From Dictyostelium discoideum (lineage: Eukaryota): a stretch of DNA of 64,000 nt. The DNA is taken from NCBI GenBank assembly GCA_000004695.1, contig CM000151.3, positions 2,944,001 through 3,008,000 on the forward strand, written 5' to 3'. A program made the translations under genes and the position numbers. The notes under the pieces are model-generated. The model made no database searches. It saw only the letters and a list, made by a program, of their open reading frames with translations, and was not told the DNA's origin. Positions 1 through 60,624 of the stretch are shown piece after piece. Every line of letters starts with the position of its first letter. Positions within the stretch are counted from its first letter, which is position 1.

Positions 1-7
1 TTATTAG

Positions 8-1021
8 ACACTTTCAGATCATTGGCATCCTCATGTTAGATATATATCAGAATATTTATTAAATGAAACTGGTAAAAAAGGAATATATTGGAAAATTAGT
101 ACAAAAGATCAACAAATGTCTAAACTTTATTTAGGAAAAGGTTATGAATTAGATGAAGCCAATCAAACAACATTGATAATTGAAGAGAATGGTATGAAAT
201 CTTATATAGATTTATTGGATTTAAAATCAACAGGATTTTATTTAGAACATAGAGATAATAGACAAATTATATCAAACCTTTTCAAAGGTAGAAATGGTGG
301 TTCAATTCTAAATTTATTTGCACATACTTGTTCATTTTCAATTGCACCTTGTGTCAATGGTCATAAAATTCAAACTTATAATATTGATGAGTCAATTAAA
401 AACTTTAAATTTGCAGATAGAAATTTTAAATTGAATGGTTTAGATACAAATTATCATAAATTCTCTCAAAAAGATGTTTTCACACAATTGGATTATTTAA
501 AATCTAAATCCACAAGATTTGATGTAATCGTTTTGGATCCACCACCTCGTACAAAAGGTAATGGTTTTGGTATATTTACAAGTAAAGATTGTTATAGAGA
601 TTTATTACAATTGGCAATACCATTATTAAATCCTGGTGGTTTCATTGCTTCTTTTGTAAATACTCAATCAATATCTGAATCAAAATGGTTAAGACAAATT
701 GGTGTTAAAAATGATTTAGAAATTAATGAAAATCATTCAAAAAAACAAATTACAATACCAACTGATGATAATAATAATAATGATGATTTAAATGAAATTT
801 CACAATTAAATATTAAAGAAGCACAATTTTCAAATTTTACTAAAAATGTATCACCATTTATCAAATTACCTAAATTTAAAGCAGTTCAATATTTTGATCA
901 ATCTCAAGATTTTAATGTAAGAAAAGGTGATGAAAATATTGCACAACAATTAAAAGGTGTATTGTTAAAGAATAAGGTTGACTATTCAAAAACTAAATAT
1001 TATTCAAGTAAACAAGATTAG
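8..1021 (+). CDS. 3'-terminal exon (5'-partial) of a class I SAM-dependent methyltransferase, RlmI/YccW-like (PF10672-type)
   Basis: The open frame runs from the window edge (in-frame stop at 5-7) to TAA at 1019-1021. Motifs NLFAHTCSFSIAPCV, FDVIVLDPPP (the DPP motif) and LLNPGGFIASF are typical of RlmI-like rRNA m5C methyltransferases. A possible acceptor ttattag|A at 6-7 means the upstream exon(s) lie outside the window. Confidence 0.7.
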   Translation, partial: TLSDHWHPHVRYISEYLLNETGKKGIYWKISTKDQQMSKLYLGKGYELDEANQTTLIIEENGMKSYIDLLDLKSTGFYLEHRDNRQIISNLFKGRNGGSILNLFAHTCSFSIAPCVNGHKIQTYNIDESIKNFKFADRNFKLNGLDTNYHKFSQKDVFTQLDYLKSKSTRFDVIVLDPPPRTKGNGFGIFTSKDCYRDLLQLAIPLLNPGGFIASFVNTQSISESKWLRQIGVKNDLEINENHSKKQITIPTDDNNNNDDLNEISQLNIKEAQFSNFTKNVSPFIKLPKFKAVQYFDQSQDFNVRKGDENIAQQLKGVLLKNKVDYSKTKYYSSKQD

Positions 1022-1278
1022 GAATAATAATAATTATATATATTGATTTTTAATTTTTTTAATTTTTTTTTTAATAATAATAATAATAATAATTTTTTTT
1101 ATTTTTTTTTATTTTTTTATACAAATAAAATCCTCATAAATTTTAAAATTAGATTTTACATATGTGTATTTATATATACATATATATTTGTTTTTTTATT
1201 TATTTATTTTTTTTGATTTTTTATTTTTTTTTTTTCCCAAATATCAATATAATGTAAGGATATTTAATTAATTATTTT

Positions 1279-3444
<2,166 letters not shown>

Positions 3445-3467
3445 TTAATTATATTTTTAAAAAAGTT

Positions 3468-3498
<31 letters not shown>

Positions 3499-3774
3499 TA
3501 CAAATTTTATTTTTTAATTATTTATTTATTTATTTATACAAATTTTATTTTAATTCTAATATTACAATTGTTTTTCAAATAAAAATAATTTAACAACAAA
3601 GAAATTTTTTTTTTTTTTTTTTAAAATAAAGATTTAGTTAATCTCCTTTTTTTTTTTTTTTTTTTTTTTATTTTTTTTATTTTTGTTTTTTTTTTTTTTA
3701 TTTGACAGGTTGTTTTTATATTTTTCCTTAAATAAAGAAAAAAATGGTTTATAGATAAAATAAAATCAACAACT

Positions 3775-3809
<35 letters not shown>

Positions 3810-4886
3810 TAGTTATGGTTTTTTATTTGGATTTTATCAAATCATATTTTATTTTTTTAAAAAACTGATAAAACCAAATTATTGCTATTGGTTTGCTTTT
3901 TTGTTTTCCAAAAGGAAAAAAACAAAAAAAAAAAAATTAAAAAAAAATAAAAAAAAATTAAATTATTTTAAATGTTAATTTTAAAAATTAATTTAAAAAT
4001 TAATTTTAGAAATTAATTTAAAATAAAAACAACTGATCGAAAAAAAAAAAAAAAAAAAAAAAAATAAGTTGTTGAATTAAGGAAAAAAAAAAAAACAATA
4101 ACAACAACAACAACAACAGAAATATTGATAGTTATTTTATTTTAAAATAGGTGGGTTTTATATTGCTGATAGTGTTTAAGGGTAATGATAAAAAAAAACA
4201 ATGGTTGAGGTATATAATTTTTTTAATAATTTGAAAAATATGAAAAAAAATAAATAAATAAAATAATTGAAAAAAAAATAAAATTTTAATACAAGGTTAT
4301 TATTTACTACCACACTATAAATAAATAAAAAAATTTTAAACCTTGGAGGTTGCTTATGTATTTGAATAATTTTATTATTATTATTATTATTTTTATTTTT
4401 ATTATTATTTTTTTTTTTTATTTTATTATTTTTTTTATTTTTTTTTTTTATTAATTTATTTTATTAATTTATTAATTTATTTTATTTATTACTATTTAAA
4501 AATAATAATTTTGGTATTGAATGAAGATCTCGAAAAAAAAAAAAAAAAAAAGTGTGAGATTCTAAAGTTTTTTTTTTTTTTTTTTTTTCTTTCTTTCTTT
4601 CTTTCTGAGATTACTAATTTATTCGAAAAAATATAATTATGTTCTTTAATTGCGAATAATGTGGAAATTAGATCTTTTACCAATCACTAAGATTAGTAAG
4701 ACAATGGAAAAAAAACAATAAATTTATTATTGACTTTTTATTATTATTATTTTATTATTTTTATTTATTTTTATTATTATTATAACAAATGTGTTTTTTT
4801 TTTTATAATTATTTCTTATATGAAATTATTTTGACGCAATTGTTGAAAATCAAAATTATTATTTTTAAAAGAAATTTTGTAAAATG

Positions 4887-4921
<35 letters not shown>

Positions 4922-4986
4922 ATTTATTATTATCTATTGTTATAGGGAAAGAGGATTGTAATTTTTAAAAAATTACAAAGGCTAAA

Positions 4987-5060
<74 letters not shown>

Positions 5061-5211
5061 ATTATTATAATTGTTATTGTTATATTATTTAAAACCACAC
5101 AAACACACAGCACACAAACCACACTTTTTTAATCATATAAATTTTATAATTATAATTATTTATATTAAAATGGAAAAAAAAAAAAAAAAAAAAAAAAGTG
5201 AATGGAAGAAG

Positions 5212-5242
<31 letters not shown>

Positions 5243-5518
5243 GAATAAATTTATAAAATATATGAAATATATAAAAAATAAATAAATTTTATAATTTAAT
5301 TATTTATACTCTGTAAAGGTAGTTACTATTTGAAATTTATAGCCGACTGTTTTATAATTCCTTTTCAGGTTTATTTTTTAGTATTTATAATTGTTTAAAT
5401 TTGATTTTTTATTTTTTATTTTTTATTTTTTTGGTTTTTTTTTTTTTTGGTTTTTGATTTAATTAAAAATTATTTAAAAAAGATGGTATAAATACTACTA
5501 AATAATGATAGTTAAACA

Positions 5519-5730
5519 ACACACACACACTCTCTCTCTCTCTCATTCACACTCATTCACACAAAGACACCACTGATATTATTTTTTATAAAAAAAAAAG
5601 AAAATAAAAATATGATAATTGTGATAGTGAGTTAAGATGGCGAATATAAATTAAGTGTGAGTGTGTTTGAGAGAGACAGACAGAGAGTGTGTGTGTGTAG
5701 TGTGTTTGAGAGAGAGTGTGTGTATGTGGT
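5519..5730. repeat. imperfect inverted repeat of composite (CA)n(CT)n / (AG)n(TG)n microsatellite arms (about 45-75 nt each) around an 85-nt AT-rich spacer
   Basis: The left arm is acacacacacactctctctctctctcattcacactcattcacac (5519-5565). The right arm, 5655-5730, reverse-complements to ...acacacacactctctgtctgtctctctcaaacacactcacac. Confidence 0.7.
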
Positions 5731-5947
5731 TAAATTTATATTGGTAGGAGGTGGTAAAGAAAAAATACTTTAAATTAAAATAAATATGTTTCTATAATAT
5801 ATTTTTTATTGTTATTGTTGTAGTTGTTGTTGTTAAAATTGTATTTGAAATTTTGATAGTTTAATAATAGTCATTGACTGGTTGGTTGTAAGAGTGGTTG
5901 GTTATAATAAATGGTTGGCTGTTTAGTTTGGCTGCAGCAAAACAATG

Positions 5948-6001
<54 letters not shown>

Positions 6002-6040
6002 GTAGTTGTGGTTAGAAAGAGTTGTTAAAGTGTTATAAAA

Positions 6041-6077
<37 letters not shown>

Positions 6078-6588
6078 CCATATTCACCTTTTTATTTATT
6101 ATTTTTATTTATTTTTATTTTTATTTTATTATAATGTCATGATATTTTAGTATATCCATCTACAAAACAAATATAAAAGGATTAAAAACAAAAAGAAATT
6201 GAAACAACAAATGAGATGAGAGTAAAAAAAAAAAAAACAATAAAAAACAATAAATAAATAAACAAAAAAAAAAAAAAAAATTAAAAAATTAAAAAATTAA
6301 TATTTAAACATTATAAATAAAATCCACAAAAAAAAAAAAGAATACTATTTGAAAACCATTTATTGTAGTTATAATTTATAAATTTATTCAATGGGAGTAT
6401 TATTATTAGTAATATTAATTTTTTATTGTTGTTTTTGTTTTTGGTGTTATTAAACACCATTTATTAACCACTATATAACACACTCACACTATTTATAATA
6501 TTATAAAATAATTATTCCCATTTGTAGATATGATTGTCAATTTTTTTATTTATATTTATGTGTGTAACATATCACATATATCATATAT

Positions 6589-6647
<59 letters not shown>

Positions 6648-6990
6648 AAAATAAAAAATAAAAAATAAATTTTATTGCTATTGTCTCACTACAATAAAAT
6701 AACAATAAAATTTTAACCAAATATTTTTCTTCTATGAGGAAATAAACCTCTGAATAAGTTTTTAACAATATATTCTTTTTTTCTATATCTCTTTTTATTT
6801 TTTTTATTTTTATTTTTATTTTTATTTTTATTTTTATTTTTTGTGAATTCTTAAAAATTTTACTTAAAAATCTAAATGTAAAAAAAAAAAATAATAATTA
6901 TAATAATTTGAGGGATAAATATTGTTAAGGTAAAATTTTATTAATTTTTATTATTTTATTATTTTATTATCATTTTATTATTATTATAAT

Positions 6991-7033
<43 letters not shown>

Positions 7034-7217
7034 GTATTAAGCAGATCTACATCTTGAAAATTGTATGGGTTTGTGTAATGCATTTGAAAAAATTTCCCAA
7101 AATAAAAAAAAAAAAATTGGTTTTTACAATAAAATATTTTAGTACAAATTCACATATCTAAGATTTTAAAAATTTCATCCCATATTGATATTATGGGTGT
7201 ATTAAAAAAGGATTGTT

Positions 7218-7225
7218 TCCCATAA
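7218..7225 (+). promoter_or_regulatory. DUSE-like motif TCCCATAA (Dictyostelium upstream sequence element consensus [AT]CCCA[CT]AA)
   Basis: Exact consensus match on the + strand. A hairpin (cccatat..tatggg at 7173-7195) lies just upstream and a G/T-rich patch (7281-7305) lies about 60 nt downstream. Confidence 0.3.
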
Positions 7226-7457
7226 AATTTAAAAAACAATTTTTTATTTTTTGTTTAATTTTATTTTATTTCATTTCATTTGGTTGTGGTGTTTTGTCGG
7301 GTGGTTAAAAAAATAAATAAAAAAAAAAAACAAATTTCTAAAATTTCGTTAGTTTTTACAATTTTTATTTTATTTTTTTTTTTATTTTTTTTTTTATTTT
7401 TTTTTTTATTATTATGATCAAATATCACACCTATCTAAATTAGTATAATAAGATAAT

Positions 7458-9000
7458 ATGATACGATTAGTATATAATAATTTTCGAAAACTTCCAAAAA
7501 CGCTTTTAATACCATCATTCCAAAAACAACCACATCCCATACATTTTAATTTCAACAAAAAACATTTTTTTACTACTATTAATAATAATAATACCAATGA
7601 AACAATATTAACAACTGAAAATACCCCCACCAATTTAACCCCAAATAATAATAATAAAATAATAATTAAAAATACTGAAGATGAAATTAAAGAAACAATA
7701 TTTTCTGTTCAAAGGTTTTTATTTATTTATTTATTATTTTTTTTTAGAAAATAATATTAATAATTTTCTTTTTTCTTTTTTCTTTTTATTTTTTTTTTTT
7801 TATTTTTTTTTACTTTTAATAATAAAGGGAATTAAATATTATAGAATTAAATGATTGGTATAATGTTAATATTACAAAAATATTTTCAGAGAATAAAGAA
7901 CTTAAAAATAGTGAAATTAGTAAACCAATTTTAAAATTACAACAAATATTTAGAGATAATTTTGAATATTCATTTTATGAGATGTTAAAATTTGCATACC
8001 CTAAAGAAGAATGGGATAGAGTTAAATTGGTAAAATCAATTGATAGGAATAAATATTTTTGGTTAAATCAAGATAATATTGATTCTTTTATTCAATCTTT
8101 TACAACTGATATGAAATTCGATCAAACTCATCGTAAATTTGATAGGTTTCGATATAGTGATGAAAATGAAACTGATAATGAATATCTTAAACAATGGTAT
8201 AAAGTTCAAAAAAATGATTTTATAAAATTTAAAGGTCGTCCAATAATTGCACAATTTAATGATTCAATTTATGGTTTTCTTTGTAGTTATTATCCAAATT
8301 ATAATTTTAAACCTTGGTTATTTACATCAGCTCCAAGGTATACCTTATTTATTATTAATTTATTATTAATTAATTATTTATTAATTTATTAATTATTTAT
8401 TAATTTTTTTATTATTATTTTTTATTATTTATTAGAAATTTTTGGAAACCAATTGAAAATCAAAAACAATATTTACAATGGTTAGGTAAACAAATAGGAT
8501 TCACAGAATATAACCATTGGTATGGTATTGGTAAAAATGATTTTGTTAAAAATAATGGATCATCTTTATTATTATTATATAATGGATCACCAGCAAAAGT
8601 GATTATAGAAGTTTTTAAAGATGATTATGATTGGAAAGTTTGGAAATTTAATAATTTACCAATATTAAATGATAATAAAAATAATGTTGATAATAATAAT
8701 GATAATAATAAAAATAATAAAATTGAAGAAATTAAAGATGAATTAAAAACTTTAAGAGAATTTTTTAAATTTGCAGGAGAATATTATAATATTTTAGATA
8801 TTAAAGATTGGTATAGAGTTTCAAATTCACAAATTCAATATATTGGTGGATCACAACTTGTTAAAAAACATGGTGGATTATTTAATTGTTTAGAGATTTT
8901 ATATCCAGAAGAGAAATGGGATTATCATATTTATTCACAACCTGGTAAAAAATCATCACAACGTTTATTATCAATTTATTTAAATCATTTATTTATTCAA

Positions 9001-9838: not shown

Positions 9839-10095
9839 TTAAAATAATCTTTTAACTATAGTACTCAAATAAATAAAAAAATAAATAAAAAGTCATAAAA
9901 GAATAAAATTAAGGTTTGGAGAAAAAAAAAAAAAAAAAAAAAAATTTATTTATTTTTTTATTTATTTATTTTACAACCAATTATAACCACCATTAGATTT
10001 AAAAATTTTTTAATAAAAATTATAATATTTATTAACTTTTTGATTTATTTGAAATCAATGATTATTAATATAAATATAGCACCATTAACCACTTA

Positions 10096-10103
10096 TCCCA
10101 CAA
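10096..10103 (+). promoter_or_regulatory. DUSE-like motif TCCCACAA followed about 45-80 nt downstream by a short hairpin and a T18 tract (a possible Pol III-type small RNA unit)
   Basis: Exact match to [AT]CCCA[CT]AA. Downstream there is a tctatcAATTGCgataga hairpin (10146-10163) and then T-run 10183-10200. Confidence 0.3.
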
Positions 10104-10865
10104 TAAAATAAAATATAAAAACTAAACCATGTAATCTTTATTTCCATCTCTATCAATTGCGATAGATAAATCTGATTGAGTTTTTTTTTTTTTTTTTTTT
10201 TGTTTTTTTTTTCCTTTTTTCATTTTCTTTTTTTTATTAAAAAGGTGAAGACGGTAATACCAATAAAAGCAATTGTAAGTTTTTTGTAAATAAGATAAAT
10301 TATATATAATTAACAATTATTTAATATTTTTTTAAAGATACAAAATGGTGCATGTATTACCATTTTTATTTAATTTATTTTATTTTTTTTTTATTTTATT
10401 TTATTTTTTATGAACCTAGTGCGTGTGTGTATGTGTGTGGTTATTAATTTGATATAACCCACCCAGAATATCTAAATAAGCCAGTTGTTTTACCTTTTCT
10501 TTTTTTAATTTCCTTTTTATTTTTTTTAAATTTTTCATTTTTCATTTTCGAAATGACTTTCCCACATTATCTTATTTTTTTTTCCATTATTTTTTTTATT
10601 TGCAAATAAAATTTTTTTTTTTTTTTTTTTTTTTTTAATTTTTTTTATTTTTTTTTTATTTTTTTGGTATTTTTTTTTTTGTATAAAATTCACCTCTTTC
10701 ATATTCTCTCCTCTGCAATATAAATTTTTTGTTTAACAAATTTTTTTTTTTTTTAATGTTTTTTTAAATATTAATTATAATTTTAATTTAAAATAGAAAA
10801 TAAAAAATTAAAAAAAAAAAAAAAAAAAAAAAACGCACATTTTACTTTTGCACAAATTAAAAAGG

Positions 10866-11220: not shown

Positions 11221-15208
<3,988 letters not shown>

Positions 15209-45955: not shown

Positions 45956-46158
45956 ATTACAAATTTAATTAAATTACAAATTTTACAAATTAATAAAAAA
46001 TTTTTTATATTTTTATTTTCATATTTTCATTTTTTTATCGCGTTACTTTTTTTTTGAAACTAATTTTCATATTTTCATTTTTTTTTTTTTACTTTTTTTT
46101 TTTTTTTTTTTTTTTCACCCCAATAAAAGATATTTATTATAGAATTTTTTTTAAAATT

Positions 46159-47404
46159 ATGAGTTCTTTTGATGCAAGTCCTAAAATTTATACCCCAAGT
46201 GAGATTAAAAGCCATTACGAGGTAAGAAATTAAGTGTATTTTTGTTTTTTTTTTTTTTGTTTTTTCTTTTTTGTTTTTTTTTATTTTTTTTTTACACACA
46301 TTTACCAATTTACTAACAAAAAAAAAATAATAAAAAAAAAAAAAAAAAATGAAAATAATAAAGGAATTTTGTCAAAGTATAAAACAAAGGCATGCATTTA
46401 TATATTGTGGTTCAAAGAGTGAATTTTGTATTAATAGTGCCCTTGAATTTTCAAGGATATTAAAAAAAGATTGTCATTTCAATTGTAAAATAATTGTAAA
46501 TCAATCAAGTTTAATAAATGAATTTGAAAAATATTTAGAAAATTCTTTTAAAGATGTTTCATATTTAGATTTTATTTTTTATTATATTGGTGAATCTCAA
46601 CATAATAAAAATAATAATAATAATTCAATTGAATTTATAATTGAAAATCCAAATCGAGAACAATGTAGTTTTAATAAAATTATAGATTTAATTGATAAAA
46701 AAGAAAAAGATTTACGTATGTTATTAATAAATAAATAAACAAAAAAAATTACAATTATTAAATAATATAATTTTATTAATACTTTATTTTTTGAAAAAAA
46801 AAAAAAAAAAAAAAAAACAAAATAGAATCATCTTTATTAAAACATGAATGTTATATAACTTTTAGAAAACTTTATATATTAGATTTAAATACAAGTAATG
46901 ATGGTATTAATCCTATTGAATCATTATCTCGTTTATTTAAAAATCAACAACAAGAGTTTTATACACCAAAAATGGGTTTTAGTAAGTTTTAAAAATTATA
47001 TCTAATACCTTTGGAAATTTATTATTATTTTATTTATTAATATATATATATTTTCAGATAGTGGAATTTTATATTCACCAATTATTGGAGATCATTCAAT
47101 CCGAGTTTTAAATCAAATGGAATTATCATCTTTTACATCAATTCTTATTGAAAGAATAACTAGTAAATCATCACTTGGTAGAAGATTATTAGATGTTGCT
47201 GATGTAATGGAGTATGAACTCTTTGAGAAATTCATTGAAACTCATTGTACAAACATTCATATCTATCAAGAATTAAATAATCTTTTCAAAGTTGATTTGG
47301 ATATGGAATCAAATTTAAAAAATAAATTTGAAATACTTTTTCTATCAAGTGCTCAAATTGCTTCATTTATTTTCGTTGAAAGAAAATTAAATCAAGAAAC
47401 ATAA
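46159..47404 (+). CDS. hypothetical protein of about 305 aa; join(46159..46221,46364..46715,46826..46981,47058..47404)
   Basis: Four exons joined by GTAAGA/GTATGT/GTAAGT donors and AG acceptors in consistent phase. Intron 1 contains a TACTAAC branch-like motif. I could not assign a family. Confidence 0.55.
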
Positions 47405-48271
47405 TCAAAACAAAATGATATTTTAATTTTTTATTTTTGAAAAATTAAATGTATAAAAAAAATATAAAATAAAAAGAGATATGTATTAATAATTTATTTT
47501 TTTTTATTTTTTTTATTTATTTTATTTTTTTTTTTATTTTTTATTTTTCATTTGTCGGAATGTAAAATAAGAAAAGATCTGATTTTACTGAAAATTTGGT
47601 ATTTTTGTTTTAAAGAGTGAGAAAAAAAAAAACAGATTTCAGTTAAAAAAAAAAAAATTTTTTTTTCTATTTTTTTTTCTTTTTTTCTTTTTTTTTTTTT
47701 ACGTTCTAAAAAACCAACGATTAAGATTTGCAGTATTTTTGAATTTTTTCACCCAAAGAACAGAGTTAATCACAATTTTTTTCATTTTTTTTTATTTTTA
47801 TTTTATTTTTTTTTTTATTTTTTTTTTTTATTGTTTTTAAAAAACCAAGAAAAGATTTTTAATTTTTTTTTTTATTTTTTTTTTATAAATTTCATTTTTT
47901 TTTTTTTCTTTTTAAATTTTTTATATAAAACAAACCACATCACGCATTGTACTTAATATATTGTAATATTATTTGATTATAAATATTACTTTTTTTTTTC
48001 ATTTTTTTTATTTTATTTTTTTTCCATATAGAAACATATACAATCTTTATTCAAATAAATAAAATAAATAAAATATAAATATACAAATAAATAAATTAAT
48101 TTATAAATAAATATACAAATAATATACAAATAATAAATAAATATACAAATAAATAAAAAAATAAAAATAAGAATAAAAATAAAAATATAAATAAATATAT
48201 ATAAATATAAATAAATAAATATAAATATAAATATAAATATAAATATAAATATAAATATAAATAATATTAAA

Positions 48272-49729
48272 ATGGATAAAAAAATAAATTTAGATTATTT
48301 AATTGATGATATTATTGTAAATTCAGATGATTTAACACCATTTCAATGTCAAATTTGTTTTAATAGTGTCATTGATTTTAAAAAAGAAACCTTATCATTT
48401 GATGTTTTACAATGTAGAAATGGTCATATTTCTTGTCACGAATGGTATGTAGTAGTATTTTATTTTTTTATTTTTTTTTTAATAAGATAAAATAAAATAA
48501 AATAAAATAAAATAAAATAAAATTATTAATTATTAATTTTATTTTAAAGTTGGAATCGTCAATTATCAATTAAACAAGAATGTCCAAGTTGTAAAGTTAA
48601 AACTTTACCAAGTGAATTATCTCGTAATATATTTTTAGAGAATGCATTTCGTGCATTAAAAGTGATATGTCCAAATAAATTTAAAGAAAGTAAATTTCAA
48701 GGAGAGGCAGTTCATTGTGAGAATGGATGTCCAGAGATTTTAAAGGTAGAATTATTGGAGCATCATTTGAAAGAATGTCAATATCAATTTATAAAGTGTC
48801 CAAACAATTCAAACAAATGTAAATATATTATTAGAAAGAATCAAATTGAACATCACAATCAATCGGTATGCGATTACTCTTTGATTCAATGCGAGAAATG
48901 TTCAGAATTAATAGAGAGAAAGAAATTAAATAAACATATCGAGAGTGAATGTGACACTCTTATGATCACATGTAGTAAATGTTCAGCATCCATTGGTAAA
49001 AAATTAATGAATCATCATTTAGAAACCGATTGTCCAATGGAGGAGATTTCATGTCTCTACAAAGCAGGTGGTTGTAATAAAAGATTCCTTCGTTCACAAC
49101 TTTCTCAACATTTATCTGAAAATAATAATCATATCTTTTATATTCAAAATGTTATGGATTTACATAAACTTCAATTGGATGAATGTAATCAAGATTATAG
49201 AAAATTAGAAAAACAAAATAGAGATTTGGAAAAAAGATTATTTTATTTAGAGAGTACTGTAAATTCAACTGTAATAAATAGTAAACCACATGAATGTGGT
49301 GGTGGTGGTGGTGGTGGCAGTGGTAATAATGTTTATAAAGGGAAATGGGTAATCAATAATTGGGATCGTAAATTACGTGAATATCCAATATCAAAGAGTT
49401 TAAATAGTCCATTCTTTCAAATTGGTTCTTCTAAATTCTTTATCATGCTCTACCCAAATGGTAACAATGAGGTTAAAGGTTTTCTAAGTATTTTCCTCTA
49501 TAAAATTTATGATCGTCCATCACTTGTAAAATATAGTTTAGAAGCTAAAAATATTGACCCCACTAAAAATTATAAAAATACTCATACAAATAATTTCATC
49601 AATAACAATGGTAATGGTTGGTTCAAATGGATTGAAAATAAAAGTCAAAATGGTTTCTTTTCAAATAATTCTTTAACAATTAGTATTAGTATTAAAATTA
49701 TTCAAGATCATTCATTAGTTACTGAATAA
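48272..49729 (+). CDS. TRAF-like protein (N-terminal RING, TRAF-type zinc fingers, coiled coil, C-terminal MATH domain), about 450 aa; join(48272..48444,48550..49729)
   Basis: The RING CQICFNSV...CRNGHISCHEC|WNRQLSIKQECPSC is rebuilt across a 105-nt GTATGT..AAAG intron (split codon tgt). There are repeated C/H TRAF zinc-finger units, a coiled coil (LEKQNRDLEKRLFYLE) and a MATH-like C-terminus. Confidence 0.85.
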
Positions 49730-50084
49730 TTTTGATAAAAATAAAATAATAAAAATTTATAAAAAAAAAAAAGAAATATAATTCAAATATTTAATTTAAT
49801 TAATAAATAATAATAGTTTTTTTTTTTTTTTTTTTTTTTAAAAAAAAAACAAAGTATTTTTTTAACCTTTTTTGGGAATGTTTTAACAAAACATTTAATT
49901 TAATATAATTTTAATAGAATAAACATTAATAATTAAAATAGATTATTTAATCTTATAACAATATATTTTAGTTGATCTTGTTACAAACATTGTCATTAAA
50001 GTTTATAAAAAAAAAGAAAAAAAATGCAACAAATATATAATGCTTAATTATTGATCAAATTCTCCGTTTTCTATATATAAAATT

Positions 50085-50390
50085 GATAATGATGGAAATG
50101 GTTCATCAGTTGATGCTGCTATTGGAAATATTACTACTGGACAATTTTTATTATGTTAAATTACATTATTTTGTGTCCTTTACAAGTGTTGGTGACATAT
50201 TATATCTGCGTATTAGTTTTGTTGTGAAGTATATGGGTTTTACAAACTTTTGTGATACTAAAACAGATTCATCAACTCTGTTCTCCTTTATATTATGTGT
50301 GTTTCCATTAATTGCTGCTATAGTGTTATGTATTAATTCTTCACCGCCACATTTATCCAATAAACTATTAGATTTTTGGAATTTGAAAAA
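50085..50390 (-). pseudogene. rearranged GldA-family (glycerol dehydrogenase) gene fragments: a C-terminal-type piece (50170-50390) placed next to a piece from the start of exon 2 (50085-50165)
   Basis: Nucleotides 50100-50160 (tcatcagttgatgctgctattggaaatattactactggaca) closely match the intact gene at 55927-55977. The minus-strand translation of 50170-50360 (...CGGEELIHNTIAAINGNTHNIKENRVDESVL...) is homologous to the GldA C-terminus (like E. coli [30 protein letters not shown]). There is no complete ORF or start. Confidence 0.7.
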
Positions 50391-50486
50391 AAAAAAAAAA
50401 AATAAATTTCTAAAAATTTAATGAGATTGACAATGTCGTAGTTTAAAAAAATATATAAAAAATTAAAAAGATTTTTGAATTGTTCA

Positions 50487-50539
<53 letters not shown>

Positions 50540-50869
50540 AATTTTCATAAATTGTTTATCTTTTTTTTAAGGTTAAAAAAAATAAGTAAACTTTTGTTTA
50601 TTTGGATACTTGTTTTTAATTTAGTTAAGTTTAGGTTTAAGTTTAATTTTATTTTAATTAATTTTTAATATTAATTTGATCATAATTAAAAAAAAAAAAT
50701 TCACAATAAAAAGAAATAATAAAAAAAAAAAAATATATAAAAATATAATAAATTATATATTATATAAAATGCCACCAAAAGTTTATGGTGGAAGAGTATA
50801 TGTATTAAATAATGGGTTTCACCAACTCATAATACTCAATGTACTCTCGTTATTGTTCTGAAAATGAAT

Positions 50870-51070
50870 TGAAAATAAAAGTCAAAATGTTTTCTTTTTT
50901 AACAATTAGTATTAGTATTACTATTATTCAAGATCATTCATTAGTCACTCAATAATTTAGATAAAAATAAAATAATAAAATTTATAAATTCCAAAAAAAA
51001 AAAAATAAAAAAAAAAAAAAAGAAATACAACTCAAATATTTAATATAATTAATAAATAATAAATTTTTAT
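50870..51070 (+). other. duplicated copy of the 3' end and 3' flank of the TRAF-like gene (paralogous to 49630..49830)
   Basis: aaaataaaagtcaaaatg...ttagtattagtatta...attcaagatcattcattagt(c/t)act(c/g)aataatt...aaaataataaaa...aaatataa(c/t)tcaaatatttaat is shared between the two loci with scattered substitutions and indels. The copy lacks the upstream coding region. Confidence 0.75.
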
Positions 51071-51289
51071 TTATTTTTTTTTAAAAAAGGAAAAAAAAAA
51101 TATTTAAGAACTAAAATTAAAAGAAATAACAGATAAAGTTTTTTTTTTTTAAACAATTCCAAATCCATTCAATTTTTTTTTTTTTTTTTTTTTGATATTA
51201 ATTTTATTACCAAAAAAAAAAAAAAAAATTTGATACCTTGCATGAAATTAAGCGAGCTCTATTTCTTTTGATTATAATTGATATAGAAT

Positions 51290-51332
<43 letters not shown>

Positions 51333-51399
51333 ATAATTTAATTTAATTATTCTCGTTTAAAAAATATTATTTGTAAGTAAATTTATTTATTTTATTTAT

Positions 51400-51660
51400 T
51401 CTCTGAAAATTTTATTTTTTGTGTCATCTACGAGTGTTGGTGACATATTATATTTGCGTATTAGTTTCGATGAGAAGTTTATGAGTTTTACAAACTTTTG
51501 TGATACTAAAACGGATGCGTCAACTCTATTTTCCTTTATTTTGTGTGTGTTTCCATTAACTGCTGCTATAGTGTTATGTATTAATTCTTCACCGCCACAC
51601 TCTTCCAATAAACTATTAGATTCATCAAGATATTCGTTCGTAAGTATAATTAATACGCTC
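51400..51660 (-). pseudogene. second copy of the GldA-family C-terminal-type fragment (85-90% identical to 50170-50390)
   Basis: The minus-strand ORF 51396..51662 encodes ...LEECGGEELIHNTIAAVNGNTHKIKENRVDASVLVSQKFVKLINFSSKLIRKYN.... This is GldA C-terminal homology diverged from the intact gene's own C-terminus (...SDTMSNMLRNFENDDIFNSIVAANEMGKRY...), so it derives from a different paralogue or an older copy. No upstream exons are present. Confidence 0.65.
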
Positions 51661-52009
51661 AAGATGTTAATTGCCTGTCCATGTAATGTATTTTGGATTA
51701 TATTTCTCGTTTGATGTTTTGATAACCTTTCTAGCAGTTGATACTTTCTTTAATACACCTGATATTGTTGTATGTATATATTATCTGTGTGTTGATTTTT
51801 GGAATAAATTGAAAAATTTTTATGTGGGGGAAAAAAGTTTTTTTTAATTTTTTTTTTTTTTTTTAATTTATTTATCAAGATAAATAATTAAATTCTAAAA
51901 ATAAATTTTTTGGTTATCCTTCAAGTTCAATGTTACACAATATCCAACAATCAATAATTAGTTTTTAAATTTTATATCGATATTTATTTTTCCAATTTCT
52001 TTTAAAAGA

Positions 52010-52480
52010 ATCCATGGCTTTTTCAATATTTTCACTTATGATTTTATAATATATTTTTGAAAGGTTATATCCAATCAATGATGGTTTTGTATTGGTTAAT
52101 TATTTCCAAAACTTTGAAAACATGGTCTCGCTTCAAAATAAGTTTAAAGTGCATTAGCCACTCCTGAAGAAAATTAACTTGGTGGCGCAGTAACCATAAC
52201 AACTGGATCAACTAAAACAACATCTGGATTTTTGGAATATAAAGATATTGATCAAATTCTCCATTTTCTTTATACCAAACTAATAATTATGCACATGATG
52301 CATCAGTCGAGGAAGCTTTAGGAAATATTACTACTGGACATTTTTACAATAAGGCAATTGCTTTAATTTAAAAATAATAAAAAAAAAAAAATAAAAAAAA
52401 AAAAAAAAATTTTAATTTCCTTTTGTAATATCAATTGTTTTAATACCAATTCCTAAATTTTTAATTTTATTAGTAAGAGG
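52010..52480 (-). pseudogene. degenerate copy of the GldA-family gene's exon-2 start, intron 2 and the 3' part of the upstream (second) exon, equivalent to 55630..56110
   Basis: Long nucleotide identity blocks with the intact gene (ttttcaatattttcacttatgattttata..., ggtggcgcagtaaccataacaactggatcaactaaaacaacatctggatt...). They are interrupted by frameshifts and substitutions, and the intron-equivalent region is retained. Confidence 0.75.
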
Positions 52481-52874
52481 ATTATTGGAATTAATTTATG
52501 TTTTTAATTTTTTCTTTTTTAATTTTTTATTTTTGTTTTTTTTTTTTTTTTTTTCAAATTCTACTTTTTAATTAAAAAGTAGATGTCCTTTGAAAAAATT
52601 GTTCATTGATGGGGTCGTTATTATTTTTTTATTATCTCAAATTTAATTCTTGAGTTTTTTCATAACCTTTGATAGGTCCAACTGTTTTTTAGTTTAAACC
52701 ATTTAACACATATAAATAATAAAATAAAAAATTTAATCTATAAAAAAAAAGTTCTTATTCATTTTTTAACAAAATAATTTAAAATCAATAATTATCTCAT
52801 ATTATCTATTTTTTTAAAAAAGACTGGATAAAAAACTAAAAAGTATGGATTAATTATTTAGTATATATTTAATC

Positions 52875-52911
<37 letters not shown>

Positions 52912-53077
52912 AGTACACAAATAATTTTGAACACTATTTTTAAAACTATTAACATTAATTTTTTTATTTATTTTTATTTTTTATTTTATGTGACTCCTTT
53001 GGTAATATTCCTTGTAATAACGATGTACTATCGATTATAACAAATTTTTTTTCCATTTTTTTTATTCTTTTTTTTTT

Positions 53078-54385
53078 TTATTCTTCCAATTCAGTTATTA
53101 AAGTATTATTAAAATTTTCTTCACTTTCTTCAATTTCTTGTTGTTCATCTTGAATTGATAAAATTTTGATATTAAATTTAATAATTAATTGATCATTTAC
53201 AATGAATTTATTATGAATATTATAGATTTCAGAGGTTGGAAATTCTATTGAATGAGAGGAGCCAATTAGATGAGAGAATTTCTTTTTCTCTTCTTTTTTG
53301 ATTGATTTAGTTTGACTTTGATTTGTAATTTCAAAAGAGAATTTAATGGTTGAAGAGGATTGAAATTGTTTTGATAAAATTACAGAAATACAATTGACCG
53401 AGTTTACCACGGTATCAGCTGATAGAGATAATGAAAATTCTTTTGTTGGTGTTAAAAAGATTGGTGGTGATATTATTAGATTTGTGAACGGGTTCTCTTT
53501 GAATAGATCGAAATGAGCAGAGAATTGTTTAATTATCCATCTACCATTGAAAGAGTAATCATTGTTAATTAGTTTGGTTTCTAATTCTTCACAACTTGAT
53601 CGAAGTTGTTTCAATTGTTTTGAAGTTGATTTCAAAAGTGATTGATGACCATTGATAATGTTGGAGATGTATTGCTGATGATTATCCTCTAATGCTAAAT
53701 GTTTTGAAAGTTCATGACGTGGAAAAGTTTCATTACATCCACCATCTTTATATCTACATCCTATAATCACCAATGGACAATCCAATAGTAAATGATTACT
53801 AAGATTCATTCTTTCAAAATCATTCTTACAATAGAAACATTTGGTTGGATAATAATTACATTGATCTTGATGATTCTCTATCTCATTCATTCTATATTTA
53901 CCACATTTTTCATTATATTCACATGAAACAAATGTAAATTTACATTCTTTTAAATGTTTACCATTCTTTAATTGTTCAATTGTTAATATTTCTTTACATC
54001 CTTTTTTTTCATCTAAAATTAATTTATTATTATCATTATTTAAAAAACTATTTGGACAATAAACCTAATAAAAATTTTTTTTTTTTTTTTTTTTTTTTTT
54101 AGTATTAATAATTTTTTTAAATAAATAAAATAAAATACAAACCTTTAAATTATTTATATGTTTTTGAAGATAAATATTTTTACATAAAGTTTGAATTGTA
54201 ACAGGAATACAACATATTGGACATTCTGATTTTACAGTTTCAATTTGTTTATGAAAACAGCCTTTACATAAACAATGACCATTTGGGCACGAAACTGATT
54301 CATTCATAAGATTACAACATAGTTGACAATAAAGATCTTCATCAATATCTTTTGAAAAAATTAAATCATCTATTGAATATTTCAT
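53078..54385 (-). CDS. second TRAF-like protein (RING, TRAF zinc fingers, coiled coil, MATH-like C-terminus), about 409 aa; complement(join(53078..54064,54143..54385))
   Basis: Exon 1 is MKYSIDDLIFSKDIDEDLYCQLCCNLMNESVSCPNGHCLCKGCFHKQIETVKSECPICC... (RING), and it ends at a GTTTGT donor. The 78-nt intron is phase 0. Exon 2 has repeated C/H TRAF-type fingers and a coiled coil (LKQLRSSCEELETKLI). It is a paralogue of the gene at 48272..49729 and convergent with it. The ORF track extended the 5' end to a TTG start at 54418. Confidence 0.8.
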
Positions 54386-54908
54386 TTTTATATTTTTTAA
54401 TTTTATTTTTTTATTCAACTATTATCATTATTTTAATATACATATATCTTTTTAATTATTATTTTTCTTTTTTTTTTTTTTTTTTTTTTTCTATCTTTTT
54501 TCACTTTTTCGTTTTCTCAATTTTTTTTTTTGTTGTGGTTGGGAAAAAAAAAAAAAAATAAAAAAAATAAAAAAAAAAAAAAAAAATTAAAAATTAATTT
54601 ACCATCAAAATAAATACACAATTTTTTGATCAATTAAAACAAAATTTCTCCCCTTTTAAATAATATTAACCAAATGATAAGCTTGATAAGTAAAATTATG
54701 TATATCAACCAAACACATAAAAAATACTTATAAATTTTTTGTTTTTTTTTTTATGACCAATTTTTGATTGAGGTTCTGTTTTATTTGCAATTTCAACTAT
54801 TTTTAATGCTAAACAATACAAAAATATCATTTTTTACAATGTAAAGGAAATAAAATTTTCATATATTCCTTTCAAATGGGTAGTTTAAACTTTTCAAAGT
54901 AGGTTTAT

Positions 54909-54949
<41 letters not shown>

Positions 54950-55156
54950 AATATGTTTATTTTTTTTTTTTTTATATCGTTTAGTAATTCAGTTAAGGGT
55001 TAAACAAATAAAATTAAATAATAATTTACAAATGTTGATTTTAATAATTATAAATAATAAAAATAAAAAACAAAAGTTTATTTTTAATTTATTTATTTAA
55101 AAACTTTAATTCATTTTATTTCTTTATTATCAAATAATAGATTAATTGAAAGAATT

Positions 55157-56505
55157 TTAAATTGGATAATTTGGTTTTAAATTTTCTATTGATATTTTTT
55201 TATATCTTTTACCCATTTCATTTGCAGCCACAATTGAATTAAAGATATCATCATTTTCAAAGTTTCTTAACATGTTTGACATTGTATCTGATGGTAAATT
55301 TGAAATTGAAGCCACTTTTTTAATATCTTCATCATTCCAATTTTTATAACCTAAATCCTCTAATGTCATCGGAAGTTTTGCAATTTTCATTATTCTAATT
55401 ACATTTTCAATTTCTCCAGTTGGAGCATCTTCTAAAATCAATTGAGCCAATAAACCAAATGCAACCTTTTCACCATGTTGAGAGGAATGTAATTGTTCTA
55501 TTGAACTTAGACCATTGGAAATTGCATGGGCAGCAGCAAGTCCTCCACTCTCTGCCCCAATACCACTTAAATAAATTGTTGCTTCTAAAATATTTTCAAA
55601 TGAAATTGAATTTGATTTACAATTTAAAGAATCCATTGCTTTTTCAATATTTTCACTTATGATTTTATAGCATAATTTTGAAAGGTTATATCCAATCAAT
55701 GATGGTTTTGTATTGGTTAAATTATTTCCAAAACTTTGGAAACATTGTCTTGCTTCAAAATAAGTTGCAAGTGCATCACCTACTCCTGAAGAAAATAATC
55801 TTGGTGGTGCAGTAACCATAACAACTGGATCAACTAAAACAACATCTGGATTATTTGGAATATAAAGATATTGATCAAATTCTCCATTATCTTTGTATAA
55901 AACTGCTAATGATGTACATGGTGCATCAGTTGATGCTGCTGTTGGAAATATTACTACTGGACATTTTTCATAAAATGCCATTGCTTTTTGTTATAAAAAT
56001 AATATAAATTAATTAATAATTAATTATTGATTTAAAAAAATAATAATAATAATAATAATAATAATTACCTTTTGCAGTATCAATTGTTTTACCACCACCA
56101 ATTCCTAAAATTACATTTGAACCTTTAGATTTTTTAATTGAACACATTCTTTCAACTTCATTTTTTGTACATTCAATTTTAAATTTTTCAACGTGAGATA
56201 TAATATTCTCTTTTTCTAAAGACTTTACAGTTTTTTGATTTACTTGATCAATTAATCTCTCATCACAAACAATAAAACATTTATTTCCAAAATCTTTAAT
56301 AAATTTTGAAGGATCATTTAATAAATTCTTTCCAATTATAAATTTTTTTGGTGAGCTAAAGTAAATTAATTAATTAAATAAAAAAAAATAATAATTAGTT
56401 TTTAAAATTATATTAAATATTATTAATAGAAATTATTTAATTTTTTTTTTATTTCTTTATTTTTTTTTATAAATATTACCAAAGAGTTTTATAAATTGTA
56501 TTCAT
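55157..56505 (-). CDS. iron-containing alcohol dehydrogenase family, glycerol dehydrogenase GldA-like, about 379 aa; complement(join(55157..55983,56069..56355,56480..56505))
   Basis: It is collinear with E. coli GldA. A 26-nt first exon (MNTIYKTL, GTAATA donor) is followed by a 124-nt intron to exon 2 (split codon tgc). The NAD-binding motif ...GSNVILGIGGGKTIDTAK|A is split by a phase-1 85-nt intron (GTAATT..AAAAAG). Exon 3 reads MAFYEKCPVVIFPTAASTDAPC...GGLAAAHAISNGL...HGEKVAFG.... Confidence 0.85.
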
Positions 56506-56941
56506 TTTAATTGGTTTTGTTTTTTTTAAACAAACAATATATTAATTAAATAATTTATGATAAATAATAAATAATAAAAATAATTAAAAAAATAAAATAA
56601 TAAAAAATAAACAAAGTGGTTGTAGTGAAAAAGGATTTGGGAGTTGTGGTTATAATAAAAAAGATTTACATTTTTATTAGGAAAAAAAAAGTATAAAAAC
56701 AAAAACTATAATTACACTTCCTCACCTTTATTTTCATAATATTTTAATTAAAAGTAACCACACCCCACCACATTTTATTTTTTTTTAATTTTTTAATTTT
56801 TCTTCGGTCTGTGCTTTTTCGTTAATAAAAAAGTATTTTTTAGTAATTATTTCAAAAATAGACATAAAAGTGAATTTGCTTTTTTTTTTTTTTTTTTATT
56901 CAATTTATTTTATACTTTAAATTATTTTATTTTTTTTATTT

Positions 56942-60624
<3,683 letters not shown>

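Follow-up and report, generated by a model that had tools for sequence, protein, structure and literature searches.

On chromosome 2 of Dictyostelium discoideum AX4, two convergent TRAF genes are separated by a 3.3-kb gap, which lies within the window analysed here (the whole 64,000-nucleotide stretch of DNA, with positions counted from its first letter). The intact genes around the gap and the pieces inside it are as follows.

48272..49729, plus strand: TRAF1, an intact TRAF/MATH-domain gene
49625-49859, plus strand: T1, the terminal 105 nt of the TRAF1 CDS together with 3′ flank; parent of T1′
50049..50151, minus strand: G′, a GldA exon 3 pseudogene fragment of 103 bp; parent sequence 55869-55971
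50158..50374, minus strand: psi-orf124-A (copy A), codons ~51-118 (the 3′ two-thirds) of a 124-aa single-exon gene
50406..50865, plus strand: O2 remnant, decayed, internally deleted and truncated by T1′
50862..51105, plus strand: T1′, a second, diverged copy of the TRAF1 3′ end
51171..51395, no strand assigned: spacer, homologous to the interval that separates the TRAF1 3′ end from the orf124 stop in other isolates
51396..51765, minus strand: psi-orf124-B (copy B), a dead full-length copy, with 5′ flank homology to about 51898
52002..52460, minus strand: C, an unprocessed GldA pseudogene block
53078..54385, minus strand: TRAF2, intact, convergent with TRAF1 and bounding the interval
55157..56505, minus strand: the intact GldA parent gene, 379 aa, with exons 56505-56480, 56355-56069 and 55983-55157

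Both TRAF genes are represented by open reading frames in the window. A TRAF1 model with zf-TRAF and MATH_2 domains is annotated at the near-identical locus L007 (an AX2-type assembly that equals the window except for homopolymer lengths), and zf-TRAF models corresponding to TRAF2 are found in L007 and in the wild D. discoideum isolates L001 and L008. The product of 55157-56505 is an exact sequence match to DDB_G0273437 and DDB_G0273503 and scores 467 bits against NCBIfam NF006941 (cutoff 336); it is a true glycerol dehydrogenase of the GldA subfamily within the Fe-ADH superfamily. The window contains no tRNA genes, the targets of TRE retroelements. No mention of DDB_G0274271, DDB_G0273437 or DDB_G0273503 was found in the literature, and a literature search for horizontal transfer of GldA in Dictyostelium returned nothing relevant.

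A self-BLAST of 49500-52700 against the whole window recovered every repeat pair listed in the sequence-only reading, with coordinates within ~20 bp. The four pairs were 52002-52460 with 55623-56112 (82.4% over 490 columns, E 1e-143), 50158-50374 with 51407-51622 (89.4% over 217 columns, E 5e-78), 50862-51105 with 49625-49859 (77.4% over 261 columns, E 5e-59) and 50049-50151 with 55869-55971 (88.4% over 103 bp, E 2e-32), all well above AT-rich chance matches. Pieces from three different parent genes are thus packed into 3.3 kb. Two of the pairs are separated by nearly equal offsets, 1237 bp from 49625 to 50862 and 1249 bp from 50158 to 51407.

The ~470-bp block described as collinear with 55630-56110, including the intron-2 equivalent, corresponds to C. 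In the alignment, C covers the final 44 nt of exon 2, an 85-nt intron-2 equivalent and the initial 361 nt of exon 3. Damage to the block comprises a 3-bp deletion within the GGGGK (GIGGGK) motif, a donor changed from GT to GA, two 1-bp deletions and in-frame stops. A GldA HMM was built from 120 homologues and searched against six-frame translations with --max (all filters off); C scored 46.6, 50.0 and 21.9 bits, spread over three frames, and matched profile positions 104-227 of 369, and G′ scored 29.1 bits (E 2.9e-10) at positions 105-145. Both pieces are therefore significant matches to the family profile, whereas neither the reading frame, the GGGxxxD nucleotide-binding motif nor the splice sites of a functional GldA gene are intact in them. 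G′ had been taken for a 60-bp piece of the exon-2 start; a GldA piece is indeed present there, but it is 103 bp long and corresponds to nucleotides 13-115 of the third coding exon, and it is joined directly to the 3′ end of copy A. The parental intron is kept in collinear position in C, which excludes a processed pseudogene and indicates a DNA-level duplication rather than retroposition; no poly(A) tail is present at the 3′ breakpoint of C. As originally proposed, part of the neighbouring GldA gene has thus been copied at the DNA level into the gap, where the copies are non-functional.

The divergence of C and G′ is ~10% from GldA genes of the D. discoideum clade, compared with 15-17% for D. 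citrinum GldA and 24-25% for the divergent GldA paralogue of D. dimigraforme. Since they are closest to the D. discoideum-clade genes, their source is assigned to the lineage of the neighbouring gene. G′ differs from these clade genes by 8-10%, yet from block C by 16-18%, which makes it an independent copy; a separate counterpart was not found beside copy A in L001, L008 or in L009 (D. cf. discoideum).

The remaining minus-strand pair, A and B, requires a different explanation. The similarity of 50158-50374 to 51407-51622 was real, but their assignment to the GldA C-terminus failed in every comparison. Neither copy matched the 120-homologue HMM in six frames with --max at E≤100, nor the NCBIfam and Pfam GldA/Fe-ADH models. 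Against the neighbouring GldA protein, BLASTP gave E 3.6; the best phmmer match among the 120 GldAs had E 1.4 and 2 bits; blastn against 55157-56505 at word size 7 returned only chance matches of 8-20 nt; and phmmer against the PDB gave no GldA support. By contrast, tblastn with P0121 detected A at E 2e-37 and B at E 5.9e-49 (in two frames), and DDB_G0274271 (P0129) detected them at E 4.6e-16 and E 2.5e-20, respectively. By these sequence comparisons, A and B are dead copies of an unrelated small, dictyostelid-specific gene, here termed orf124. The sequence-only reading had instead made all non-TRAF pieces GldA, with A and B as C-termini of a lost, more bacterial-like paralogue. By eye, 'GGEELIHNT...VDASVLVSQKF' does loosely resemble 'EGETIHNM...[11 protein letters not shown]' at the C-terminus of bacterial GldA, and D. 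dimigraforme does have a second GldA paralogue (P0003, 69% identity). Yet no significant GldA match to A or B was obtained by profile or pairwise search, both match the unrelated family at E 1e-16 to 1e-49, intact full-length members of that family occupy exactly the A/B site in other isolates, and a Foldseek comparison of the orf124 structure with the PDB gave no link to the Fe-ADH C-terminal domain. We consider this reading extremely improbable. Because A and B are not GldA-derived, the argument for a lost bacterial-like paralogue falls, and C and G′ trace to the neighbouring gene lineage.

orf124 is a 124-aa single-exon gene, intact in the orthologues of copy A at L001 16456-16830 and L008 10001-10375. 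Its relatives include P0121 (97%) and D. firmibasis P0123 (75% over full length) in phmmer/BLASTP searches. A profile search retrieved dictyostelid proteins of 115-129 aa only, including AX4 DDB_G0274271, together with two long repetitive proteins, probably spurious matches. The core CGGEELIHNT is invariant in the family alignment, and A and B belong to this DDB_G0274271-like family by significant similarity and by the conserved core. Interspecies dN/dS was 0.18-0.26. The AF2 model is a confident 4-helix structure (pLDDT 85) for which Foldseek found nothing in the PDB with E<1, and Pfam yielded only sub-threshold noise. From sequence and model together, orf124 is a real gene under purifying selection between species. 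Neither AX4 copy retains an ATG-to-stop frame of ~115-129 codons. In A, codons 1-50 (the 5′ third) are deleted at a poly(A) run (50375-50395) and G′ stands in place of the last 6 codons; in B, an alignment with 8 other copies revealed ATG changed to ATA, a 3-bp deletion, GAA changed to TAA and a 2-bp frameshift deletion.

The plus-strand pieces tie these copies to TRAF1. T1′ comprises the final ~31 codons of TRAF1, from which 11 nt are deleted, followed by the stop codon and 3′ flank, in agreement with the proposed duplication of the TRAF 3′ end. The spacer region aligns over 51171-51898 with L001 17037-16302 and over 51213-51801 with L008 10546-9960, and T1′, spacer and B together (50862-51816) form one HSP with the single-copy locus L009 10778-9915. 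The O2 remnant matches L001 16136-15496 and L008 9696-9127; its counterpart beside orf124 in other isolates carries a predicted ORF of 155-170 aa, for which no Pfam match (170-aa ORF in L001) and no homologues outside the D. discoideum clade were found.

The genomic contexts of orf124 might suggest that it reached the TRAF gap and other loci by RNA-mediated retroposition, A and B being processed copies. It has a single exon and occurs in three non-syntenic contexts in three species, including locations elsewhere in D. firmibasis and D. citrinum, between which homology is limited to the CDS (10001-10380 versus 10001-10367), with no flank similarity over 10 kb on either side. Against this, the orf124 copies lack a poly(A) tail, ~100 bp upstream of the ATG are common to them, and the A/B duplication takes in sequence from the TRAF 3′ end as well as 5′ flank of up to 400 bp. 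In addition, O2 and orf124 lie in the same collinear arrangement at two places, the D. citrinum locus L006 and the TRAF gap of D. discoideum; at least 1.3 kb therefore moved as DNA. Retroposition is accordingly an unlikely route, and we favour movement at the DNA level.

Automated annotation raises a further alternative, in which the fragments are spliced into a functional chimeric minus-strand gene, GenBank model ACTFIT_003014 (P0126, 118 aa) of the AX2-type assembly. Such a spliced gene is indeed called across the fragments, and several of them retain ORFs of 64-88 codons, which is unusual for AT-rich DNA. P0126 is, however, an ab initio model only, which joins C 52221-52177, B 51756-51676, B 51566-51498, A 50363-50250 and G′ 50135-50109, reads G′ in the wrong frame and contains one orf124 segment twice. 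As a whole it has no homologue, the gene models of L001 and L008 differ and do not reproduce it, and the parent frames of its pieces carry nonsense and frameshift lesions. A functional chimera is thus highly improbable. These results show that 50049-52460 is pseudogenic in AX4 and in its chromosome-2 duplicate, and protein-coding capacity anywhere in the AX4 gap seems unlikely.

Comparison among isolates and species places the pieces in time. The orthologous TRAF gap of D. citrinum is empty and 766 bp long, so all gap pieces arrived after the D. citrinum split. L009 has a single orf124 copy and no GldA pieces, L008 has two orf124 copies without C, and L001 has two orf124 copies and C; in the two wild D. 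discoideum isolates, L001 and L008, an intact orf124 is present at the gap. C is orthologous to L001 13477-13920, with both breakpoints and 9 derived substitutions in common, and is absent from L008 and L009; it is old enough to be common to one wild isolate, yet polymorphic. In L001 and L008 a partial copy of the TRAF UTR lies directly beside the true TRAF 3′ end, before copy A, and no clear T1′-spacer was detectable beside copy B; permissive self-BLAST of L001, L008 and L009 for a degraded T1′-spacer near B gave mainly ~60% AT-rich matches. L001 shows gene conversion between A and B, which blurs their orthology.

Since their offsets are equal, T1/T1′ and A/B are attributed to one tandem duplication, and the collinearity of 50862-51816 with single-copy L009 agrees with this. 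The order of pieces had been called scrambled, through successive local duplications and deletions; separate events are indeed needed for the two GldA pieces, but T1/T1′ and A/B are explained by a single one. A single tandem duplication does not fully account for the arrangements in L001 and L008. The broader view of an origin by local duplication and deletion is supported.

From the observed piece identities, lesions, presence or absence among isolates and equal offsets, we infer the following order of events and molecular mechanism. After the D. citrinum split, a cassette of orf124 and O2 would have lodged just downstream of TRAF1. A ~1.24-kb tandem duplication of the last ~105 nt of the TRAF1 CDS, the spacer and orf124 would then have produced T1/T1′ and A/B, and 460 bp from the neighbouring GldA gene, together with the intron, would have been copied beside B to give C. 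In the AX4/AX2 lineage, an independent 103-bp piece of GldA exon 3 (G′) may have replaced the spacer beside A, with A losing its 5′ third, O2 being internally deleted and B gaining its start loss, nonsense and frameshift. Unequal recombination or template-switching repair in the AT- and homopolymer-rich spacer would be the favoured mechanism. The gap is an ordinary collection of dead gene copies, and that these are DNA-level copies from three genes assembled by this series of events is, in our judgement, very probable. A more far-reaching and rather doubtful idea is that the TRAF gap is a recurrent DNA-capture site and orf124/O2 a relocating cassette, dead in the NC4-derived laboratory lineage. 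Breaks in the spacer would then have been repaired from templates 1-6 kb away, GldA twice and the TRAF 3′ end once, and AX4/AX2 would constitute a natural null for a lineage-specific gene.

The main value of these results lies in annotation hygiene: ACTFIT_003014 joins four pseudogene pieces into a chimera, and no hidden second GldA paralogue stands behind the fragments. The TRAF gap is also a structurally polymorphic locus among D. discoideum isolates. As a modestly interesting by-product, orf124 represents a dictyostelid-only, ~120-aa helical family whose location shifts between species, and its presence or absence, intact or dead, among D. discoideum isolates offers a tractable small-scale example of lineage-specific gene turnover.

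Among known systems, C resembles duplicated unprocessed pseudogenes in retaining the parent's intron and exon order, in its frameshifts, stops and dead splice donor, and in lying on the parent's strand 3.2 kb away; G′ and T1′ are shorter pieces of the same kind. The gap differs from ordinary duplicated pseudogenes in having three parents and in holding copies of a family, orf124, that has no intact member in the window. A and B agree with DDB_G0274271-like proteins in length class, single exon and C-G-G-E-E-L-I-H-N-T core, with 48-49% identity to DDB_G0274271 and 81-90% (aligned parts) to P0121, encoded at the same site in L008, whereas both AX4 copies are disabled. Tandem duplication with later differential decay, as after unequal crossing-over, is a further parallel: one offset of ~1.24 kb fits two repeat pairs, and the second unit keeps the ancestral order that D. 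cf. discoideum shows in single copy. The gap departs from it in that GldA sequence replaces the spacer of the first unit, and the arrangements in other isolates exceed what a single duplication would fully account for.

The gap between the convergent TRAF genes of the very AT-rich window contains an unremarkable group of pseudogene pieces produced by duplication. All four repeat pairs listed there by an earlier sequence-only reading were recovered by self-BLAST, with coordinates that proved right to about 20 bp.

Features of the inter-TRAF gap and its neighbours (window coordinates; identities and E values from self-BLAST)
48272-49729 (+): TRAF1
50049-50151: G', a GldA-derived piece, aligned with 55869-55971 (88.4%, E 2e-32)
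50158-50374: A (psi-orf124-A), aligned with 51407-51622 in B (psi-orf124-B; 89.4%, E 5e-78)
50862-51105: T1', a copy of the TRAF1 3' end (T1, 49625-49859; 77.4%, E 5e-59)
52002-52460: C, a GldA-derived piece, aligned with 55623-56112 (82.4%, E 1e-143)
53078-54385 (-): TRAF2
56505-56480, 56355-56069, 55983-55157 (-): intact three-exon GldA gene (span 55157-56505), 379-aa product

An exact-sequence look-up showed that the product of 55157-56505 is identical to AX4 DDB_G0273437 and DDB_G0273503, the two copies arising from the AX4 chromosome-2 duplication. The protein scored 467 bits against NCBIfam NF006941 'glycerol dehydrogenase' (cutoff 336); this intron-containing gene satisfies the bacterial GldA subfamily model. 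Outside Dictyostelium, its nearest named relatives come from bacteria such as Shewanella, Salmonella and Hafnia (~49-55% identity), a pattern that would be compatible with an old acquisition from bacteria. Two GldA genes are present in D. dimigraforme: P0146, in a ~90% cluster with D. citrinum, and a divergent paralogue, P0003 (69% identity; L003 10001-11855), which has aldo-keto reductase genes on either side and could belong with them to a small polyol/aldehyde metabolism cluster. L007, a separate D. discoideum assembly with ACTFIT tags, matched window 46000-60000 with 0 mismatches and 38 gap positions, and is probably AX2-214, judging from Holland et al. 2025 (PMC12745789).

A GldA profile built from 120 homologues was searched, with all filters off, against the six-frame translation of 49700-53080, and matched only C and G'. 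C covers profile positions 104-227, divided among three frames, and G' covers positions 105-145. The earlier account was right about the larger GldA-derived block, the small one and the TRAF1 3' duplicate, except that the small piece, described as 60 bp of the exon-2 start, is 103 bp long and corresponds to the beginning of coding exon 3. In the nucleotide alignment, C comprises 44 nt from the end of exon 2, the equivalent of intron 2 and 361 nt of exon 3, and is on that account an unprocessed DNA-level copy. It has lost 3 bp from the GGGGK motif and 1 bp at each of two other sites, its splice donor is dead (GT to GA), and stop codons are present. Over its exon-3 part, C is ~10% divergent from the GldA genes of three genomes in the D. 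discoideum clade; the figure is 15-17% for D. citrinum GldA and 24% for the divergent paralogue in D. dimigraforme. G' differs by 8-10% from the D. discoideum-clade genes and by 16-18% from C; being closer to the clade genes, it is a separate copy of the GldA gene and not part of C. C and G' both derive from the neighbouring GldA lineage after the D. citrinum split; no lost paralogue is called for to account for them, and the earlier proposal of one is wrong. G' was found in the AX4/AX2 lineage only. C in the wild D. discoideum locus L001 has both breakpoints and 9 derived substitutions in common with C in the window, so that C goes back to one old insertion and remains polymorphic.

The best-conserved pair, A and B, had been taken for C-terminal-type GldA fragments, but belongs to another gene: neither copy has detectable similarity to the neighbouring GldA or to any GldA at the DNA or protein level. 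At the site orthologous to A, L001 carries an intact 124-codon ORF, orf124. Searches with its protein identified an intact copy in a second wild isolate (P0121) and relatives in D. cf. discoideum (P0122), D. citrinum (P0125) and D. firmibasis (P0123; 124 aa, 75% identity over the full length). When 1.8 billion representatives were searched with a profile, the only additions were dictyostelid proteins of 115-129 aa (AX4 DDB_G0274271, three from D. purpureum and two from Tieghemostelium lacteum), apart from two probably spurious matches to long repetitive proteins. In tblastn against the window, DDB_G0274271 matched B (E 2.5e-20) and A (E 4.6e-16). orf124 is a real gene, given an interspecies dN/dS of 0.18-0.26 and a confident AlphaFold2 model of four helices (pLDDT 85). 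The predicted fold has no significant neighbour in the PDB, and the protein matches no Pfam family. This uncharacterised, dictyostelid-only family has an invariant CGGE.LIHNT-like core.

Copies of orf124
Window 51396-51765: B
Window 50158-50374: A
L001 16456-16830: wild D. discoideum
L008 10001-10375: wild D. discoideum
L005 10001-10375: D. firmibasis

Both window copies are dead. B has lost its start codon (ATG to ATA) and gained a stop (GAA to TAA), and also carries a 3-bp deletion and a 2-bp frameshift. In A, the first ~50 codons are missing, the break falling at a poly(A) run, and G' stands in place of the last six. A GenBank model, P0126 (ACTFIT_003014; 118 aa), spans the interval on the minus strand of the AX2-type assembly (L007 10001-12227, window ~50100-52350) and is spliced from four different pseudogene fragments in five pieces: C 52221-52177, B 51756-51676, B 51566-51498, A 50363-50250 and G' 50135-50109. 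The G' piece lies outside the GldA frame, and the same orf124 segment is used twice. As a whole, P0126 has no homologue, and the model has no counterpart in the other assemblies; it is probably an ab initio annotation artefact.

Content of the inter-TRAF gap in the genomes compared
D. citrinum (L002), 766 bp: empty, with none of these pieces
D. cf. discoideum (L009), ~2.1 kb: TRAF end, spacer, one orf124 and O2 (sequence beside orf124); GldA pieces absent
Wild D. discoideum (L008), ~3.3 kb: A intact, O2, B with TAG; C absent
Wild D. discoideum (L001), ~4.0 kb: A intact, O2, B open, plus C
AX4/AX2, ~3.35 kb: G', truncated A, deleted O2, T1', spacer, dead B, C

The offsets from T1 to T1' (1237 bp) and from A to B (1249 bp) are alike, and window 50862-51816 (T1', spacer and B) aligns as a single block with the single-copy TRAF end, spacer and orf124 of L009; the two pairs are therefore attributed to one tandem duplication. 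The duplicated unit would be ~1.24 kb, starting inside the terminal ~105 nt of TRAF1 coding sequence, with two independent GldA-derived insertions and several deletions superimposed. We infer both the order of events and the molecular route, with a preference for unequal recombination or repair by template switching in homopolymer-rich DNA. Next to the real TRAF end, L001 and L008 have a partial copy of the TRAF UTR, and no clear T1' accompanies their copy B. A-to-B gene conversion is visible in L001: the middle of copy B (14101-14549) is identical to that locus's own copy A, with B-type ends, and is a conversion tract between the tandem copies. On account of these features, a single duplication would explain only part of the gap's history.

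The orf124 loci of D. firmibasis and D. citrinum lie elsewhere and are mutually non-syntenic; across 20 kb, they can be aligned with each other in the CDS alone (L005 10001-10380, L006 10001-10367). Counting the window, the gene has a different context in each of three species. The D. citrinum gene has a 10-bp deletion near the 3' end, bridged by an intron in the gene model. O2, on the strand opposite orf124 (window 50406-50865; L001 15262-15774; L008 8893-9389; L006 9347-9645), adjoins orf124 in D. citrinum as well, which argues that at least 1.3 kb moved as a DNA segment. In L001, O2 contains a continuous predicted ORF of 170 aa with unusually high G+C for Dictyostelium; it has no Pfam match and no homologue beyond the D. 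discoideum clade.

L009, a possible cryptic species, has two large minus-strand genes beside TRAF2 (1-8700) in place of GldA and alpha-adaptin. Its GldA gene (ACTFIZ_011046) lies on the same contig a few genes off, so a local rearrangement relative to AX4 has occurred.

The mild interest of the cluster lies in the turnover of a small lineage-specific gene, orf124, intact in two wild isolates and dead in the AX4/AX2 laboratory lineage. Across window 46000-60000, L001 and L008 differ from AX4 by ~2.5% in the GldA exon and by 11-18% in the pseudogenes and at synonymous sites of the region. Such divergence is deep within a single nominal species and accords with the diverged discoideum clade of PMC12745789.
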